DNA of 64,000 bases from positions 35,302 through 99,301 of the forward strand of contig DVLO01000010.1 in assembly GCA_018715495.1 (NCBI GenBank). Reading direction: 5' to 3'. The notes beneath the pieces were generated by a model. It was not told where the DNA came from, ran no database searches, and worked only from the letters and a program-made list of their open reading frames with translations. Every line of letters begins with the position of its first letter. Position 1 is the first letter of the stretch. The DNA comes from Candidatus Limihabitans stercoravium (GTDB lineage Bacteria; Bacillota; Clostridia; Christensenellales; CAG-314). This document shows, one piece after another, positions 34,830 through 45,901 of this stretch. Made by a program: the position numbers and the translations under genes.

Positions 34830-37064
34830 CTATTTTATTAACTCGTACTTGAACAACAAAGGAACTATGTAATCATTATAGTAGACTTTTACAGTAGTAT
34901 CTAGAGTTTTTATTGCTGTATTTAAATTAGCATATTTATAAACAAGTACGGGTTCGCCTTTACTATTTTCACGTCCTGAATCTATTTTTATATTTATATC
35001 TTCAAGTATCTGCCATGTGCCAAAACGGAAGTTTGGATTTCTTGAAACCGTTGCTTTGTATTCGTCAGTACGCATTGCTTCGTAAACTACATCATCCCAG
35101 TATTTTAATAATCTATTTTCAATCTCGGATAATACGTGACCATCATTTATAAAATTCGCCAAACTATTGTAAGCAATAGTGTCTTTTTGATCAAAGCATA
35201 ACTCGTTTCGATAAAACCGACCATCACTCCCCAACAGAGATCGACATTTGTTTTTCGAGGTCAATGCTGTATAAATTAAGCAACGTTTAAGAAATTCCTT
35301 GTCGGTTAAGTAACTTCCTTGTCCATCGTAGGACTTCGAATAGACATCAGTTTTATACCATTTATCGTACGCAAATGTCGCAGCTGCAAATAACGGTAAC
35401 TTTTCTAGGAAATTATCACATCGCAGATAAAATCCATGAGCCTTATATAAACCACCTCTGGTTAAAGTCACATCTTTCCTGTCGATTTGAAAATTACTTG
35501 TCATGAGATAAGCTAATATATTTTCATTAAATAGTGGTGTTATATATTTTTTACGACCGTTTTCAATAAATTCCGTTCCGTCCCTTTCGAAAATGATTCC
35601 CAGTTGGTCATTTTTGAATGTGCGTTTGTCGTAAGCCTCAGAAAGATTGTGGTAAGCTTTTCTAATTATAATTTCATCATCTATTGCTTTATGTACTTTA
35701 TCACCAACAATATCAAAAGCTGTTAGTCTCAGCGAAGTTGTTTCGTAGTCGTCAATATTGCTCCAATGTATGCAACCTATTGCAGAATTTTGAGAAGCAT
35801 GAAATTCTTTTCGATTACATAAAAATCCGCCCCAAAACTTTTTGTTTACAAGATTTTGATTTCTCCAGTATTTGGTTGGTGAATATAAAATGTAACTATC
35901 AGTAGGTTTTTTTAGGTAATATTTAAATCCACTCCAAATAAAAAGATTAGAAAGGTCGTTTAGTACTACTCCCTTATGTTCTTCACGCATTCTTTGAATA
36001 ACGTAGCTTTGTTTCCATGCATTTTCTTTTTTACCTGTGTTTTGAGTACCGCCACTACCAGATTCACTAAATGGTGGATTTTCCATTAAAATTACAACAC
36101 AGTTTTTATCATTTATTTTTTCACGTATGTAATCGTTAGAAACCCCTTGTTCGTTATGCTCGGCGGGAATAATATCGTAAGCTAATGCGTCTGTATTTGG
36201 AATAACGACTAAACATTTGTCCCCATATTTTAAATTTAACAACACGTACTCGTTGAATTCAATAGTGGACAAAACACAATGCTTTAATATTTCATCGGGT
36301 AACCCCTCTTCTAAGTTTCCTGTGCCTGCACAACGATCAATAATAATATAGTCCATTCCATGGGGAATCTTATTTATTGCTTTAAACAATAATTTGTGCA
36401 TCTCGTTTACATAAGCTCTGGGTGTGTAGTATGCTCCATGTTCTCTTTGAAGTAATCCTGGATTCAAACAGTCCATTATGTCTTCAAATTCAATGTTGGT
36501 AATTTTTTCGTAAGGGTATATTCTATCTTTTAAAATATTTGGCTTGCGTATTTCTGCATTTGCACCTTTTATAAAACTGTCTTTGTTTGGGTTTAATTTG
36601 TAGTATTGCTGCGAAAGCCCAATAATATTAAATTTATCAACGTGGTATTTAACAAAATTATTGCTGTTTACATACTCAAATAGTTTTTGAAGACCAAGGC
36701 TTGTAGAATAATCGATTTCAATGTGTTTTGCTTTTGTAGTAAATTCGTCATTTCCTTTGCTTGCAGCTCCGAAATAAACTTTTTCAATATCTTCAAGCAA
36801 ATCTTCTGATTGAAATATGTATGCTATTTCTCGATTTAAATCATTAAGAATAATATTCGCAGGAAGTTTTTCTCCCCTAATACGAATACGTGAAGCGTAT
36901 TTAACGGCTTGAAATAATACCTTATTTATATTATCTATATTCAATTTGTTTTCATAAAGATTGCCTTTATCTATCCCGTCTGTGTTATGTGACAAATCGG
37001 GGTTAATTCCTATTTTATTATAAAATTCTTTTTGACCATCTATTTCTGCCAAGTAAGCTTTCAT
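34830..37064 (-). CDS. Gamma-class N6-adenine DNA methyltransferase, large single chain; candidate Type IIG/IIL (MmeI-like) restriction-modification enzyme
   Basis: Motif X GAYYTPRAYVNEM; motif I DRCAGTGN (36315-36338); motif IV NPPF (36069-36080). About 400 aa lie C-terminal of motif IV, consistent with a TRD (target recognition domain). The N-terminus has GID-x5-E-x-K. I chose the ATG at 37064, preceded by AGGAG. Confidence 0.75.
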   Translation of the reverse strand: MKAYLAEIDGQKEFYNKIGINPDLSHNTDGIDKGNLYENKLNIDNINKVLFQAVKYASRIRIRGEKLPANIILNDLNREIAYIFQSEDLLEDIEKVYFGAASKGNDEFTTKAKHIEIDYSTSLGLQKLFEYVNSNNFVKYHVDKFNIIGLSQQYYKLNPNKDSFIKGANAEIRKPNILKDRIYPYEKITNIEFEDIMDCLNPGLLQREHGAYYTPRAYVNEMHKLLFKAINKIPHGMDYIIIDRCAGTGNLEEGLPDEILKHCVLSTIEFNEYVLLNLKYGDKCLVVIPNTDALAYDIIPAEHNEQGVSNDYIREKINDKNCVVILMENPPFSESGSGGTQNTGKKENAWKQSYVIQRMREEHKGVVLNDLSNLFIWSGFKYYLKKPTDSYILYSPTKYWRNQNLVNKKFWGGFLCNRKEFHASQNSAIGCIHWSNIDDYETTSLRLTAFDIVGDKVHKAIDDEIIIRKAYHNLSEAYDKRTFKNDQLGIIFERDGTEFIENGRKKYITPLFNENILAYLMTSNFQIDRKDVTLTRGGLYKAHGFYLRCDNFLEKLPLFAAATFAYDKWYKTDVYSKSYDGQGSYLTDKEFLKRCLIYTALTSKNKCRSLLGSDGRFYRNELCFDQKDTIAYNSLANFINDGHVLSEIENRLLKYWDDVVYEAMRTDEYKATVSRNPNFRFGTWQILEDINIKIDSGRENSKGEPVLVYKYANLNTAIKTLDTTVKVYYNDYIVPLLFKYELIK

Positions 37065-37185
37065 GATTGAATCTCCTATCGTAAATGCATACCAATTGTA
37101 ATGCAATTGCGTTAATTTGTCAATTTAATTGCGTATTATATTAAACGCAGATGCATAGTATAATAGCATAAAGGAGATTGCCTTT

Positions 37186-37479
37186 ATGGATATAATAGCG
37201 AAAATAGAAAAATTGAAGAATGATAGAGGTTGGACTGATTATGAGCTTGCTCAACAATCAATGCTTACGCAGTCTACAATCGCTTCAATAAAGGCACGTG
37301 GAACGGCACCTAAGGTAGAAACATTACAAGCAATTTGTAATGCTTTTGGAATTTCGTTAGCACAGTTTTTTTTAGAAGATGAAAGCATTGATATGCTAAG
37401 TGAACAAGAAAAAGAGCTAATTGAAAGATTTAGAAAATTGCCAATTAAGAAAAAACAAGCACTTATTGATTTATTGTAG
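37186..37479 (+). CDS. XRE-family helix-turn-helix regulator, divergent from the methyltransferase (controller-protein-like)
   Basis: HTH_3 pattern (WTDYELAQQSMLTQSTIASIKARGTAPKVETLQAICNAFGISLAQFF); AAGGAG RBS. Confidence 0.8.
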   Translation: MDIIAKIEKLKNDRGWTDYELAQQSMLTQSTIASIKARGTAPKVETLQAICNAFGISLAQFFLEDESIDMLSEQEKELIERFRKLPIKKKQALIDLL

Positions 37480-37530
37480 ATTAGCAATCATAAACTATTT
37501 AATGAGTTAAAACTTGATATTAAACAATGA

Positions 37531-37563
37531 AAAGAACACGACAAACGTCGTGTTCTTTTTGTT
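37531..37563 (+). terminator. Rho-independent terminator after the XRE gene
   Basis: AAAGAACACGAC / GTCGTGTTCTTT followed by TT. Confidence 0.75.
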
Positions 37564-37637: not shown

Positions 37638-38846
37638 TCATGCGAAAACATTGAAATTGCTTGCCGTCGGAATGTACACAAGTGTGACGTTGCTGTCGTT
37701 GAAATTCGCTCTTGCGGTTTGGACGTAATCGGTGGGATTGTAGTTTACCTTGCTTGAAAGTTCTCCTCCGCCTGTCACGTTTCCGAACATTTCCCCCCAG
37801 CCGTATTGGTAGTTCAGGTATTCCTGAAAATCGTTGTAGTGGTTATAGGTGTAGAAAAGGTACTTTTCGTTTACATCTGTCATTCCGTCGCCGTTTTCAT
37901 CGTAACGTGTGTAAACAATGCGTGCCGCTCCACGTGTTATGTTTTTGCCGTCGTTGTAAGGTTTTGCAATAAAATTCGGGTCGCAATCAGTGCCTGTAGT
38001 TCCGATGTCGATTTCGTAATATTGAAGATCACCGCCGCAACCGCTGATGTCGGGAAGTACGGGTTCGTAAGGATACTTTTCCGTGTTGCCGCTGAATTCA
38101 GTGTGGTTGAGCCTGAGATAAATTCCCCATTCACTCAATACGGGACTGGAATATTTACCGGTAGCGTAATTGGGCGGAACGTCGCCGAACGCCATGAGGT
38201 AGGCTGCAACTTCTTCAAGAGTAACATATGCTCCGTAACGGTAAACCTTGTTTACGATGTTTCCGTTGCTGTCGAACACGTAGTAGGTATCGCCGTCCAT
38301 TGAGTAAAGAACGGATGTATTTCTTACAAACAGGGCGCCTTGTTTTGGTTGATTTTTGGCAATGGTGGGTTCCTGATCTTGTTCGGAAATGTCACCCGAC
38401 ATCAATCCGTGCTGGGTACGGAAGTAGGCGTCGGCAGAACTTGTTGCAGGTTGGTAATTTTCGTAAAATTCCTCTTTGTCAACGTTTGTGTAAGGGTCGT
38501 TTATTGTATCGGGATTTTTAATTTCAATTTCGATACTGTCGGAGTGTTTTCCGTTGGTTGCGGTTACAGTTATTGTGCCTTCCGCAGTTGCCGTCAGTAT
38601 GTCTCCGTCAATGGTGGCAATGTCCTTACCGGAAGTAATGTTGAGATTGTAACTTTCAATTTCGTTACCTGCTGTGATCAATCTGGTGTTAAAGCAACGC
38701 AACTGTACTCTGTCTCCGATGTAAACCTGACTGTCTGTTGCTGTAATTTGTATTCCGGTGTTGAACAGAAATACAAACAGAACTGACGCTATGAGAATCA
38801 GAGCAACCAGCAGCGCAATTGTAATTTTCGTGGATTTTTTCGTCAT
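37638..38846 (-). CDS. Membrane-anchored/secreted barnase-family (microbial N1/T1-type) ribonuclease with one Big_2-like Ig domain
   Basis: N-terminal TM/signal anchor. The C-terminal domain is collinear with barnase: TLEEVAAYLMAFGDVPPNY, EFSGNTEKYPYEPVLP, YYEIDI, RGAARIVY and FYTYNHYNDFQEY. The equivalents of barnase K27, E73, R83, R87 and H102 are present. Confidence 0.75.
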   Translation of the reverse strand: MTKKSTKITIALLVALILIASVLFVFLFNTGIQITATDSQVYIGDRVQLRCFNTRLITAGNEIESYNLNITSGKDIATIDGDILTATAEGTITVTATNGKHSDSIEIEIKNPDTINDPYTNVDKEEFYENYQPATSSADAYFRTQHGLMSGDISEQDQEPTIAKNQPKQGALFVRNTSVLYSMDGDTYYVFDSNGNIVNKVYRYGAYVTLEEVAAYLMAFGDVPPNYATGKYSSPVLSEWGIYLRLNHTEFSGNTEKYPYEPVLPDISGCGGDLQYYEIDIGTTGTDCDPNFIAKPYNDGKNITRGAARIVYTRYDENGDGMTDVNEKYLFYTYNHYNDFQEYLNYQYGWGEMFGNVTGGGELSSKVNYNPTDYVQTARANFNDSNVTLVYIPTASNFNVFA

Positions 38847-38961
38847 TTTGTTTCCTTCTTGGTAAATTGTACTTTCAAACTAACAGCCATCACTACGGAT
38901 GGCTGTGCGAAGTAATATTTTACATGAAATTTATAAAAATGTCAATACGGACATTTTTAAG

Positions 38962-40779
38962 TCAGGCATAAATACCGTCAAAAAAGACGTACTCCGTTGC
39001 CGTAATTGCGGCAGTGAATGGAGAAAAATCCTCTCTTGCTGTCGGTACATAGGGCGTTGGATTGTAGTCGTACTTGCTGGAAATTGTGCCTCCACCTGTG
39101 ATGTTGCCGAACATTTCTCCCCAACCTCCACGGTAGTTCAGGTATTCCTGGAAATCGTTGTAGTGGTTGTAGGTGTAGAACAGGTAACGTTGGTTGGGTG
39201 TCAGTGTTGCGCCGTTGTCCGTCTGTGCGTAAACAATTCGTGCCGCTCCACGTGTAATCGTTTCGCCGTCATTGTAAATTTCTGACGGGTAACTGGGATC
39301 GCAGTCCGTCCCTGTAGTTCCGATATCTATTTCGTAGTAGCGCATTGTTCCGCCACATCCGCTGATGTTTGGAAGTACAGGTTCGTAAGGGTACTTTTCG
39401 GTGTCACCGCTGAAATAGGAATGGTTCAATCTGAGATATTCCGCCCAATCGGAAGAAGTCGGACTGGTGTATTTACTGGAAACGTAGTTTGCGGGTATGT
39501 CGCCGAATGCGAATACGTAGGCTGCAACGTCTTCCAACGTTACGTAAGCGCCGTCACGGTAGATTTCGTCTACTATCTTGCCGTATTGGTCAAATACGTA
39601 GTAGGTGTTTCCGTTTACCGAAAACAGAACTGATGTGTTGCGCACGAACATTCCGTCAGATGTCGGTTGATTGTCGGCAATGGTGGGTTCCTGATCTTGC
39701 TCTGAAATGTCACCCGACATCAATGCTTCGTCGGAACGGAATCCTGCGTCCACCCAGTTTTCGGCTTCGGTGTAATTGTTGTAGAAGGTGTTTTTGTTGG
39801 TGTTTCTGTACGGGTTGGTCAGTGTGTCGGGGTCAACAACCGTTATTTCTGCGGGTGCGCTGTAGTAGTTGTCGTACACGGCTTTTACTTTAATCGTACC
39901 GCTTGAGTAGGCGGTCAATATGTCTCCGTTAATTGTTGCAATTGTTCCGCCTTCTACAATTTCGAATTCAAATTGCACATTGCTGTAGGCATTATCTTTG
40001 AATGTTGCATTCAACTGCAGTCGGTCGCCCTCAAGCAGTTCATCCTTGTAGAGTTGCATTTCCAGTAATTCCATGTCGGGCCGGGGCGATTGCATTACCA
40101 CAATTTCCATTGTGTCGGAGTACTTGCCTGCAGTAATGGTTACAGTGCAGTTGCCTTTCTTTTGTGCGGTTGCTATACCTTGTTGCGTAATTGTCACAAC
40201 GTCATTGGATACCGTCCACACAATTTTTTCGGTAATTCCCGATGTGATTGTGTACTGCAACCGGAATGTTTCTCCGACATTCATTGTCTTGGTTTTTTCC
40301 ACAAAAGAAATGCTGTTGTTGTCTTCCCCTGCCAGTACCGTAATTGTAATGGTGTCGGAGGATTGTCCTAAAATTATTGTGACAGTGCAATTTCCTTCTT
40401 TCAGCGCTGTCACCAATCCGTCGGGAGCAATTGATACTACGTCGTTGGATGTTGTCCATGATACGTTGTGAGGTTTGTCATCGCTGATGGCGTAGGACAG
40501 GTAGTCCGATTGTCCTACAGTAAAGGTTATGCTGTCTTGGATAAACTGAACTGTTGGGTCGGGAGTGGATGTTGTTGTGTCAGTAACTGTTATGTAAACA
40601 AGATCACTGGCTTCGCCTGCACGTACAATTACTGCGCAGACACCGGAAACAAGTCCGACTACAAGTCCTTTGTCAGAAACGCTGACATTGTTTCCTGTTG
40701 CCGACCATTGCAGCTGATCCTTTATATCTTCTGTAACGGTATATTTGAGCTGGATAGATTCACCTACCTTCAATTTCAC
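38962..40779 (-). CDS. Barnase-family ribonuclease with several Big_2-like Ig domains. The true 5' end is probably the ATG at 40909, out of frame because of an A8 tract.
   Basis: The C-terminal domain is a paralogue of 37638..38846, with visibly high nucleotide similarity. The frame stays open upstream to 40905 and encodes IFSAVCLILALLIFSGCS (lipoprotein signal) with no in-frame start. Confidence 0.75.
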   Translation of the reverse strand: MKLKVGESIQLKYTVTEDIKDQLQWSATGNNVSVSDKGLVVGLVSGVCAVIVRAGEASDLVYITVTDTTTSTPDPTVQFIQDSITFTVGQSDYLSYAISDDKPHNVSWTTSNDVVSIAPDGLVTALKEGNCTVTIILGQSSDTITITVLAGEDNNSISFVEKTKTMNVGETFRLQYTITSGITEKIVWTVSNDVVTITQQGIATAQKKGNCTVTITAGKYSDTMEIVVMQSPRPDMELLEMQLYKDELLEGDRLQLNATFKDNAYSNVQFEFEIVEGGTIATINGDILTAYSSGTIKVKAVYDNYYSAPAEITVVDPDTLTNPYRNTNKNTFYNNYTEAENWVDAGFRSDEALMSGDISEQDQEPTIADNQPTSDGMFVRNTSVLFSVNGNTYYVFDQYGKIVDEIYRDGAYVTLEDVAAYVFAFGDIPANYVSSKYTSPTSSDWAEYLRLNHSYFSGDTEKYPYEPVLPNISGCGGTMRYYEIDIGTTGTDCDPSYPSEIYNDGETITRGAARIVYAQTDNGATLTPNQRYLFYTYNHYNDFQEYLNYRGGWGEMFGNITGGGTISSKYDYNPTPYVPTAREDFSPFTAAITATEYVFFDGIYA

Positions 40780-41037
40780 ATCTTCATCCAGTATCTTGAC
40801 TGATGAAGGTTGTGTAATCGATGGGAGATTTAAAAGACTACATCCGCTGAATATAAGCAGTGCCAGTATGAGGCAGACTGCCGAAAAGATTTTTTTTGTG
40901 TTTTTTCATTATCTTTACCTTTCAAGTGTTGGTTTGGTTGTTTGACTTCGTTAATGTACGTCTGTCAAAAAACGGGTAATGTTGATTATAATACTAATTG
41001 TGTTTTGTGTCAAGATGTGTCTTGCAACGGACACTAG

Positions 41038-43609: not shown

Positions 43610-44173
43610 TTAACCATTTATCAACTGGTCGGCTTCGTTCAGTATTTGATTAAGGCGAGAACGCATTCTTTGAACTTCGTTGTCCCATTTAGCTTGCCTT
43701 TCTTTCATCTCATCCTTGTGTTTGTTGTAGTTGGCAATGCGGATGATATATATGACGATTGGCAACAATGCACCGACGGCAATCCCTATGTAAGTTACAA
43801 TTTCGCCTGCAAGACCGGGCAACAACTTGAATGCAAGAAAGGCAAGAATTACCATTCCGATAAGGTGGGGAATGATACTCGGTTTTTTGAAAGGATTGCC
43901 TGCTTTAGACTTGGATTCAAGTTCTTTCTCGGTTGAAATGTATTCCGATTCCAGTTGTACCACCTTGTTGTACCAAGGAGAGGATTTTTCCCTTGAAAAA
44001 GTTATTTTATTGAAGGTAGAGTAGTGTTGTGTTCCGTCGGAATCCTGTTTGGTAAATTCCTGACATCTCTGATTGTTTATTACTTCCCAACCGAAGTTTT
44101 CCCAAAATGAGATTGTAGCATTAATTTTTGCGTCATCCGGGTAAACTTGTACTGTCTTTGTTTCCCTTGCCAT
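43610..44173 (-). CDS. Hypothetical protein: small N-terminal globular domain (DUF4177-like GWEV pattern), two TM helices and a C-terminal coiled coil
   Basis: GGAGG RBS. Hydrophobic block at HLIGMVILAFLAFKLLPGLAGEIVTYIGIAVGALLPIVIYII. Confidence 0.5.
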   Translation of the reverse strand: MARETKTVQVYPDDAKINATISFWENFGWEVINNQRCQEFTKQDSDGTQHYSTFNKITFSREKSSPWYNKVVQLESEYISTEKELESKSKAGNPFKKPSIIPHLIGMVILAFLAFKLLPGLAGEIVTYIGIAVGALLPIVIYIIRIANYNKHKDEMKERQAKWDNEVQRMRSRLNQILNEADQLING

Positions 44174-44293
44174 TGTACTTCCTCCTTTGATTTAAGCAAA
44201 ATACAACATATTTCGCTTATAATGGAAGTATTTTAACACTAAATATAGTGTATGTCAAGCAATGCACACTAAATTAGATGTATCATTTATCAC

Positions 44294-44503
44294 ATGAGTA
44301 GTCTTGGCGAAAATTTAAAATATCTGAGAAAGATAAATAAAATCAGCCAGAAGGAATTTGCCTTGAAAATGAATACTACCCAGCAGAGAGTAAGTGAGTG
44401 GGAGTGCAATAAGGTAGAGCCCTCACTTTATAACATCGTTAAAATTTTACATTTATACAACATTACATTTGAAGAGTTGATGGAAGGAATTGATATAAAT
44501 TAG
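44294..44503 (+). CDS. XRE-family HTH regulator (69 aa)
   Basis: LKYLRKINKISQKEFALKMNTTQQRVSEWECNKVEPSL; divergent from 43610..44173. Confidence 0.8.
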   Translation: MSSLGENLKYLRKINKISQKEFALKMNTTQQRVSEWECNKVEPSLYNIVKILHLYNITFEELMEGIDIN

Positions 44504-44519
44504 TGTTTATTGAACAGTT

Positions 44520-44558
44520 ACAGCCTCTGTCGTTATCGGCAGGGGCTGTTGTTTTTTT
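44520..44558 (+). terminator. Rho-independent terminator
   Basis: ACAGCCTCTG / CAGGGGCTGT followed by T-rich sequence (TGTTTTTTT). Confidence 0.7.
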
Positions 44559-44781
44559 AACTAATTTGATTTGGTTTAGTGGTATTGATTAATTTTACGC
44601 ACAAATTGTAACCTTGAAGGCTGTTGTGCTTTCCGGATCATGTTTTGTATTGTAAATGTATTTATTTAACGAGGTAGATTGAACGCTTACAGTTTTACCG
44701 TTTCAATATCCTGTCTGTTTGATTGTTCAACGATAGATTAACAGACAACGTCTGCAAGGTAATTATTTGCAGTAGTGTATT

Positions 44782-45717
44782 TCAATCTGTGTCGAAACGG
44801 TAAATTGTGTAGAATGGTGTTTTCTTAGGTTTGTATGTGCAATCTTTACTTAGTCCGATGTACAGTATCGAGGTAGCCTCGAAAGATTTTTTGATTACTA
44901 AGCAATTTCCTTTTGTGGTAATTGCACACACATCATTGTAAACTTCCCTCTCGGGATGCCAGTGCGTCAGGTTTTTTGTACGGCTACTGTTTGTGTTTAT
45001 GCTGATACAGTCCTCGTCTATTTCAACAAACAGATCCTTGCTTTCCCAGTGTATTACCTCATCGTTTACCAAGGTAAATTTGCCGCCAAGGTTGTCCGTC
45101 AACATCAGCATGTCGTACAGTTGTTTAGCGTTACGTGGTACTGTTGACAGTATTTTCCAGTTGGTTTGTTCCAGTGCATTTTCGTAGTTGTTTACCACAA
45201 AGAGGCAATCGGGAACTTGTTCTTCGCTAATGAAGTCATCTTCAATGATTGTTCTTTCCACAATGAGTTTTACAGGGAGGTTTTTCAGATCGTCAGGCAG
45301 TGACAGTTTCAGTATTTCCGCTTGCTGTTCTATGTTGCACAGGCTTTCTTCACGGTATTTACGGTAAATGCCTTTCAGTGTTCCGTCAACAACTTTCATT
45401 GATTGAAATTCATTAAAAAAATACAACGTCCCACAGTATTCGAAGTAATCGGGACAGCCTTTCCTATGGGTGTACGTTATGTTCAGTTCTTTAAACTTGT
45501 CACACATTGCGTTGTAGAACAGGTATTCGGGGCGTGAATTAATTGCGCTTTTGTAGTTTTCGGAAAAGTCATTGTAGTAACGTGATTTCTTGTATTCTCT
45601 TATTGGTTTTATGGATTGAAACGGATATGCCACCGCCAAGAAAATGGCTGACAATACAATTAACGGCGACAATAAAATGCAAAGTAATGCTATCAGTAAT
45701 TTAGTGTACCACTTCAT
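44782..45717 (-). CDS. Hypothetical N-terminally membrane-anchored protein (311 aa)
   Basis: I chose the ATG at 45717, preceded by AAGGAGAAAGG. The ORF-track start at 45846 runs through a hairpin. No family recognised. Confidence 0.5.
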   Translation of the reverse strand: MKWYTKLLIALLCILLSPLIVLSAIFLAVAYPFQSIKPIREYKKSRYYNDFSENYKSAINSRPEYLFYNAMCDKFKELNITYTHRKGCPDYFEYCGTLYFFNEFQSMKVVDGTLKGIYRKYREESLCNIEQQAEILKLSLPDDLKNLPVKLIVERTIIEDDFISEEQVPDCLFVVNNYENALEQTNWKILSTVPRNAKQLYDMLMLTDNLGGKFTLVNDEVIHWESKDLFVEIDEDCISINTNSSRTKNLTHWHPEREVYNDVCAITTKGNCLVIKKSFEATSILYIGLSKDCTYKPKKTPFYTIYRFDTD

Positions 45718-45901
45718 ATCCTTTCTCCTTTGCACAATTGTATCACATTGTATTGCAAATTGCAATACAGTTGGCTGAACACAACAAGCCGTCCCATCGT
45801 TCGGGACGGCTTGTAAAGTCTTTGGATTTGTAATTGTTAAATTCAATGGGTAGTTTGTTTCTGAACAGCTGTGTTGACAGTGCTTTTACAATTTCTTGAA
45901 G

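Follow-up and report, generated by a model that had tools for sequence, protein, structure and literature searches.

The 64,000-nucleotide stretch of contig DVLO01000010.1 from Candidatus Limihabitans stercoravium analyzed here (hereafter, the window) contains two neighboring minus-strand genes whose products each join an export or anchoring signal and Ig-like domains to a conserved C-terminal module of about 290 amino acids (aa). These open reading frames (ORFs), which we call ORF A and ORF B, had been read in a preliminary description of the sequence as tandem paralogs encoding secreted barnase-type ribonucleases (RNases), and both exist as it described them. The coordinates of the genes and of the features discussed below are collected in Table 1.

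All of the barnase motif blocks that the preliminary description had listed for the C-terminal ends of the two proteins are present in both genes. PF00545, the ribonuclease family to which it had pointed, was the sole Pfam family to match the conserved module, but the scores of 20.9 bits for ORF A (E 5e-4), 19.3 bits for ORF B (E 1.7e-3), and 21.7 bits for the module alone fell under the gathering threshold of 24 bits. Among divergent members of the family, 20 of 79 matched PF00545 at E<=0.01, with none better than 3e-4, and sequence searches of the PDB, both with a single sequence in phmmer and with a profile, returned only Ig-like chains and never barnase. When a 148-sequence family profile was aligned to barnase and binase with hhalign, using a barnase query sequence that had been checked against the PDB beforehand, module residues 95-235 were placed opposite barnase residues 1-110 with 30% identity and a probability of 64%. 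The score of this alignment was 34.6, as compared to a maximum of 20.8 among 30 column-shuffled controls.

We then considered the predicted structure of the module, generated with AlphaFold2 from 149 diverse homologs (predicted local distance difference test score, pLDDT, of 93.6 and predicted template modeling score, pTM, of 0.91), which superseded a model built from 25 close homologs that had a pLDDT of 70 and no meaningful PDB matches. In a Foldseek comparison of the 149-sequence model to the PDB, the top nine matches were all barnase or binase, with probabilities of 0.99-1.00, and the next match had an E-value of 1. The barnase and binase matches had template modeling (TM) scores of 0.62-0.65 normalised to barnase over 142-144 aligned columns, with 20-22% identity, and the order of secondary-structure elements in the model, with N-terminal helices packed on a five-stranded antiparallel sheet, agrees with that of barnase. 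A structural comparison of this kind had been proposed as a check on the preliminary description, and the predicted model, whose sole PDB matches are barnase and binase, confirms that the C-terminal module contains a barnase-fold domain and settles what the sequence comparisons left weak.

The register of the hhalign alignment was used to locate the equivalents of the barnase catalytic residues, and their conservation was counted over 148 family representatives; residue numbers are those of the 290-aa C-terminal module, with ORF A numbering given alongside. In this register, E169 (ORF A E278) corresponds to barnase E73, D171 to D75, R196 (R305) to R83, R200 (R309) to R87, H227 (H336) to H102, and Y228 to Y103. 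The equivalents of E73 and D75 are conserved in 100% of the representatives, that of R83 in 99%, R87 in 98%, H102 in 99%, and Y103 in 98%, and the alignment supports an intact catalytic set of Glu, Arg, Arg, and His. Of the five catalytic residues that had been reported as present, E73, R83, R87, and H102 hold up in this count (98-100%), whereas K27 aligns to module G121, the adjoining K122 being a Lys in 76% of representatives. In the guanine-recognition loop (barnase F56-S57-N58-R59-E60), F142 is 92% and S143 78% conserved, E152 (95%) pairs with barnase E60 only past a 6-residue insertion, and N58 and R59 are not conserved.

The barnase-like part of the module is not, as had been proposed, the C-terminal 110 aa of each protein. 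The core extends over ~140 aa owing to three insertions relative to barnase, a conserved N-subdomain of 95 aa precedes it, and a conserved extension of 58 aa comes after it. Neither the N-subdomain nor the C-terminal extension has a match in Pfam or the PDB. The N-subdomain being a fused barstar was rejected at the sequence-profile level (hhalign probability 0.1-0.2), and the order of its secondary-structure elements appears to differ from that of barstar. As a separate observation on the ends of these proteins, family members finish with a low-confidence aromatic/hydrophobic tail of ~20 aa (window 37641-37700 and 38965-39020; C-termini of homologs P0005-P0120). This tail often ends in -CA, -AA, or -VA, with Ala as the last residue in 55 of 120 close homologs, and is unlike an LPXTG or transmembrane-type sorting signal.

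Table 1. Positions in the window of ORF A, ORF B, and associated features. Residue numbers for ORF B are those of the 605-aa version with the GTG start.
Feature	Position	Strand	Description
Intrinsic-terminator-like hairpin	37530..37559	-	13-bp stem, downstream of ORF A
ORF A	37638..38846	-	402 aa; N-terminal signal-anchor or transmembrane (TM) segment (MTKKSTKITIALLVALILIASVLFVFLF), one Ig-like domain, 293-aa predicted RNase module
ORF A C-terminal extension	37641..37814	-	58 aa, conserved; GWGEMFGN-TGGG..NPT-YV motif; low-confidence aromatic/hydrophobic tail last
ORF A barnase-like core	37815..38237	-	Residues 204-344; three insertions relative to barnase; E278, D280, R305, R309, and H336 as putative catalytic equivalents
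ORF A module N-subdomain	38238..38519	-	Residues 110-203; two helices and a three-stranded sheet (predicted), highly conserved
ORF A Ig-like (Big_2-like) domain	38520..38744	-	Approximately residues 35-109; Big_2 E 0.0057, 17 bits, sub-threshold
Promoter-like site, ORF A	38917..38945	-	TTGACA-17-TAAAAT, 11/12, upstream; pattern match only
ORF B gene	38962..40909	-	648-aa lipoprotein in relatives; here a 605-aa ORF from GTG 40779
ORF B barnase-like core	39139..39555	-	Residues 409-547; E483, R510, R514, and H539 as putative catalytic equivalents
ORF B Ig-like region	39838..40779	-	About four Big_2-type domains; Big_2 E 9.7e-17, 61.1 bits, 3 stretches
ORF B signal peptide and lipobox (…LALLIFSGC)	40840..40909	-	In ORF B frame; ATG out of frame
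A8 homopolymer	40890..40897	-	Frameshifts the 5' part of ORF B
Promoter match, ORF B	40985..41013	-	TTGACA-17-TATAAT, sigma-70-type, 12/12, upstream; pattern match only

The fusion of the predicted RNase domain to Ig-like domains and an export or anchoring signal was borne out for both proteins, by a hydrophobic N-terminus in ORF A and a lipobox in ORF B. The N-terminus of ORF A is basic and hydrophobic and has no lipobox Cys, i.e., it is of the signal-anchor type, and a lipobox-like motif (pattern [LVI][ASTVI][GAS]C) is present in 109 of 147 family representatives. The Big_2 repeats that had been proposed are strongly supported in ORF B but only weakly in ORF A, where the match remains under the threshold for PF02368 (22.8 bits). 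The Ig-like region of ORF B also matches I-set and Big-like, and its profile matches Ig-like PDB chains; the single Ig-like domain of ORF A is homologous to the final one in ORF B, with which it can be aligned.

The start of ORF B requires closer description. As read in the assembly, the ORF runs over 38962-40779 on the minus strand and encodes 605 aa from a GTG start. The export signal that the preliminary description had attributed to this 605-aa protein is indeed encoded, but the ORF begins at the GTG, and the ATG of the signal (40909) lies +1 out of the ORF B frame, with the first codons of the lipoprotein signal in the other frame, a shift caused by the A8 run at 40890-40897. Read from 40905, from which point the ORF B frame is open, the sequence gives KNTKKIFSAVCLILALLIFSGC followed by S, which constitutes a lipobox-containing lipoprotein signal. 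In a conspecific contig (L088) with an ORF A 99% identical to the one here, the run is A7 instead of A8 and the 648-aa gene is intact. The N-terminus is also intact in the homolog P0011, with P0011 and P0020 starting MKKHKKIFSAVCL(M/I)LALLIFSGC / MKTNKKIFSAVCLILALFIFSGC. Because L088 has A7 and an intact gene and P0011 has the same intact N-terminus, we take ORF B to be in reality a 648-aa lipoprotein gene, the frameshift of which could stem from an error in the assembly, from a genuine mutation, or from phase variation of a surface protein by strand slippage.

ORF A and ORF B are 62% identical over 341 aa, which comprise one Ig-like domain and the C-terminal module of ~290 aa, and the module DNA is 68.6% identical between the two. 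The duplication had been described as recent on account of the nucleotide similarity between 37775-37865 and 39095-39185. These segments match only after a 4-nt shift, with 75 of 91 positions identical (82%), and since they fall in the invariant YLFYTYNHYNDFQEYLNY…GWGEMFGN stretch, their similarity reflects constraint on the protein. The homologs P0001 and P0002 are 99% and 89% identical to ORF A. Among the 83 homologous loci whose neighborhoods are described below, only the present lineage has two copies within 10 kb, and the pair of 648-aa and 402-aa genes is already found in the relative L001, in the same LysR/malic enzyme context and with an ORF A ortholog that is 89% identical. As such, the duplication is specific to this lineage but old, rather than recent.

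The family to which the two proteins belong is large. Homologs of ORF A make up at least 2,832 clusters at 90% identity, among which all named ones are called 'hypothetical protein' and no precomputed Pfam domain lies on the module. An exhaustive hidden Markov model search retrieved 369 clusters at 50% identity with E<=1e-3, 197 of them with E<=1e-30, and in one-genome-per-species data a relative is encoded at 465 loci. The best 80 of these 465 loci are 59-72% identical to the window module and come from ruminant, rabbit, and human guts, their sources being uncultured Clostridia, Eubacteriales, Oscillospiraceae, and Lachnospiraceae together with Bacilli-type metagenome-assembled genomes (MAGs; Erysipelotrichaceae, Acholeplasmatales, Coprobacillus). 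The N-terminal parts vary across the family and consist of a lipobox and low-complexity linker or of Big_2, Big-like, PT, or Flg_new repeats. A search of NCBIfam gave nothing relevant, and no description of the family was found in the literature.

The gene neighborhoods of 83 homologous loci were surveyed. Genes of nucleic-acid or nucleotide metabolism lie within 10 kb at 48 of these loci. SurE nucleotidase genes are present at 29 loci, at a median distance of 267 bp, and DHH/DHHA1 NrnA-like genes, usually in two copies, at 29 as well; thymidine kinase (TK) genes were found at 24, genes for SNase-domain proteins of ~450 aa at 15, ExoIII-like Exo_endo_phos at 14, His_Phos_1 at 11, and HD/dGTPase-like genes at nine, and components of ABC importers are also frequent. 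The recurrence of SurE, DHH, TK, HD, SNase, and ABC importer genes is suggestive of roles in catabolism and salvage. At loci of the type represented by L005, genes for an ABC ATPase, two permeases, a substrate-binding protein (SBP), an SNase, a 943-aa protein, and the RNase homolog are co-directional, and the SBP, SNase, 943-aa protein, and RNase homolog all bear lipoboxes. The SurE, two DHH, HD, and TK genes at these loci encode products without a signal peptide and are convergent to the importer/RNase set. Genes for a xanthine/uracil permease and two phosphoribosyltransferases are located 4-7 kb from the pair, both in the window and in its relatives. We also note L005 1-13902 as a candidate nucleic-acid utilisation locus, with further examples in L009, L010, L014, L015, L056, L063, and L080, and that the large lipoprotein of such loci is 940-1030 aa long with weak matches to aBig_2 and the OB-fold.

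The reading that we consider best, and that we hold to be moderately probable, is that these proteins are surface-tethered endoribonucleases that digest extracellular RNA for salvage. Beyond the fold, the conservation of catalytic residues, the export signals, the family size, and the gene neighborhoods established here, the activity, substrate, physiological role, and means of self-protection that we infer would be as follows. Both proteins would be exported and tethered to the membrane, ORF B being a lipoprotein whose Ig-like domains form a stalk and ORF A relying on its N-terminal signal-anchor, and each would display a barnase-fold endoribonuclease outside the cell. Extracellular RNA would be cut by the barnase mechanism, with E278 as the general base and H336 as the general acid (ORF A numbering) and with R305 and R309 holding the phosphate, yielding products with 2',3'-cyclic and then 3'-phosphate ends, which would feed the salvage of nucleotides, nucleosides, and phosphate. 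Self-protection would come from Sec export of an unfolded precursor, possibly together with an unlinked inhibitor.

Known systems offer partial parallels. Bacillus barnase-type RNases are induced by phosphate starvation (PMC5021464), and the family resembles barnase, binase, and balifase (N1/T1 superfamily, PF00545) in its predicted fold, its Glu/Arg/Arg/His set, its motif order, and its export, as well as in having an RNase gene usually not adjacent to barstar and a tie to nutrient limitation (PMC5021464). In contrast, barnase, binase, and balifase are free 12-kDa enzymes, whereas here a core of ~140 aa lies inside a 290-aa module with an N-subdomain and a C-extension, and a lipobox or TM segment tethers this module, which is carried on Ig-like domains. 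Identity to barnase is only 20-30%, below the Pfam cut-off, activity is predicted, and the family comes from MAGs of anaerobic gut Clostridia and Bacilli, unlike the Bacillus enzymes. On the predicted structure, then, the module is a relative of barnase at the fold or superfamily level, one that fails the curated Pfam threshold and is set apart by its elaborate module and its tethering.

A second parallel lies with the lipoprotein nucleases of Mycoplasma, which are encoded in ABC-transporter operons and have been proposed to supply nucleotide precursors (PMC3585158, PMC11729948). These Mollicute membrane nucleases (M. agalactiae MAG_5040, M. hyopneumoniae mhp379, M. bovis MnuA) are lipoproteins whose genes accompany those of a sugar-type ABC importer and of an SBP lipoprotein. 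The L005-type loci share this layout of nuclease and ABC importer and also contain an SNase lipoprotein. The Mollicute nucleases are sugar-nonspecific enzymes of the SNase or EEP fold, whereas the predicted RNA-specific barnase-like lipoprotein would be an extra component absent from those descriptions; unlike in the Mollicute operons, no ABC or SNase genes neighbor the pair in the window. Were the salvage reading true, many uncultured gut Clostridia and reduced-genome Bacilli would display an RNA-specific nuclease, in many cases beside salvage genes, and extracellular RNA from the diet, the host, or lysed microbes would be a recognised nutrient, which offers a testable model of nucleotide dependence. 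The results also open to structural and functional study a large family, every named member of which is annotated as 'hypothetical' (at least 2,832 clusters at 90%, 369 at 50%, 465 loci), and they extend the barnase fold to a tethered form with multiple subdomains.

Several points weigh against reading the proteins as salvage RNases. The Foldseek E-values to barnase and binase are modest (1e-3), the PF00545 gathering score was never reached by any family member scanned, and the guanine-recognition loop is conserved in part only. ORF B is 5'-frameshifted in the present assembly. No characterised family member with enzymatic activity was found in the literature. As for the neighborhoods, the 83 loci are phylogenetically related and synteny is common to related species, meaning that the counts lack independence; clustering of the flanking ORFs indicates that most Bacilli-labelled loci have no nucleotide-metabolism neighbors; and the window has none of the seven recurrent gene types (SurE, DHH/DHHA1, TK, SNase, Exo_endo_phos, His_Phos_1, and HD), nor does an ABC importer lie beside the pair.

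A broader proposal, which we put forward tentatively and regard as rather doubtful, is that the family belongs to an undescribed 'nucleic-acid utilisation' system of gut Firmicutes in which the N-subdomain is a built-in element replacing barstar. In such a system, the surface RNase lipoprotein would act with the SNase lipoprotein, the large OB-fold-like lipoprotein, and the ABC importer, and these would feed the cytoplasmic NrnA-like DHH, SurE, HD, and TK enzymes. The 95-aa N-subdomain could be a new regulator or substrate-binding element, making a separate barstar unnecessary.

The structural evidence for salvage RNases would serve equally well for active surface RNases with a mainly non-nutritional role, such as turnover of biofilm matrix or extracellular RNA, degradation of small RNAs of the host or diet, or defence against RNA phages. 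The Ig-like stalk and the strong consensus promoters, which suggest abundant surface display, would suit such a role, as would the absence of an adjoining salvage operon at the window pair. Nevertheless, we find it unlikely given the recurrent linkage of the family to SurE, DHH, TK, HD, SNase, and ABC importer genes, and no biofilm or phage-defence genes were linked to the family, with PADLOC yielding only generic helix-turn-helix (HTH) matches on the neighboring proteins. Among the roles that the preliminary description had listed, nutrient scavenging is the one favored by the evidence, whereas biofilm turnover and interbacterial antagonism are less likely.

Interbacterial antagonism is the role implied by the earlier framing of the pair as toxins, in which the proteins would resemble the barnase-type tips of polymorphic toxins and have an immunity protein encoded elsewhere. 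Toxins do use the barnase fold, cytoplasmic barnase is lethal without barstar, and no inhibitor gene is visible locally. The earlier statement that no barstar-like ORF lies nearby agrees with our searches: phmmer with a PDB-validated barstar sequence gave a best E-value of 2.2 over the six-frame ORFs of the 64-kb window and of 0.26 within 10 kb of the 83 homologous loci. PF01337 was not found in ten window ORFs (nine of 69-187 aa), the matches being to HTH, 2-thiouracil desulfurase, deaminase, and similar families. Unbiased clustering of all flanking ORFs at the 83 loci likewise revealed no conserved small neighbor gene, as every small flanking ORF cluster was the shadow of a larger conserved gene. 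One inhibitor candidate, a 109-aa ORF located downstream of the L005 homolog, was rejected, being a small multi-TM protein present at only four loci. The significance that had been attached to the missing barstar is not supported, because the genes of barnase and binase are not adjacent to barstar either, and only that of balifase is (PMC5021464); its local absence is therefore no anomaly.

Beyond the lack of an adjacent immunity-like gene, the toxin framing is countered by the family itself, in which no LXG, RHS, WXG, or other trafficking domains were found and the N-terminal parts contain only Ig-like, PT, and Flg_new repeats. The module is 60-72% identical across distant Clostridia and Bacilli MAGs, representing 80 species, and not hypervariable, its neighbors are often genes of nucleotide salvage, and a lipoprotein anchor does not carry a toxin into another cell. 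Similar to the polymorphic toxins with barnase-like C-termini (Zhang et al. 2012, PMC3482391), these are larger exported proteins with an RNase domain toward the end, here followed by the 58-aa extension; unlike them, they lack an adjacent immunity gene, domains for trafficking or processing, and cassette variability, the sequence being highly conserved and housekeeping-like. We therefore judge a toxin role to be distinctly improbable. Least probable is that the module retains only the fold and serves as a binding domain without catalysis (as an adhesin, or as a binder of RNA or glycan), for although the PF00545 match is sub-threshold, the insertions and extra subdomains are large, and the Ig-like repeat architecture resembles that of an adhesin, equivalents of the catalytic Glu, Arg, Arg, and His that are near-invariant in 148 representatives would be unexpected for a dead enzyme.

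Regarding transcription, the 12/12 and 11/12 matches to the sigma-70 consensus upstream of ORF B and ORF A suggest separate, strong transcription of both paralogs. An Rfam search of the window and of four homolog loci returned no riboswitch or other element.

The pair is flanked on one side by LysR and malic enzyme genes and on the other by a low-GC, strain-variable insert, past which lie genes for desulfoferrodoxin, 2-thiouracil desulfurase, the xanthine/uracil permease, and the two phosphoribosyltransferases. The insert, which occupies window 34830-37479 between ORF A and the desulfoferrodoxin gene, has a GC content of 34-37% and encodes a 758-aa protein with motifs like those of amino-methyltransferases (DRCAGTGN … NPPF) and no match in Pfam, PADLOC, or PDB sequences, as well as a divergently transcribed XRE-type HTH gene. 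This site is occupied in the conspecific L088 by a 221-aa gene together with a truncated abhydrolase gene, and in L001 by an intact 521-aa abhydrolase gene. At 43610-45846 on the minus strand, ORFs of 187 aa and 354 aa, neither with a Pfam or PADLOC match, flank a small XRE HTH gene (44294-44503), and this region, with a lower GC content of 38%, may be another variable islet.

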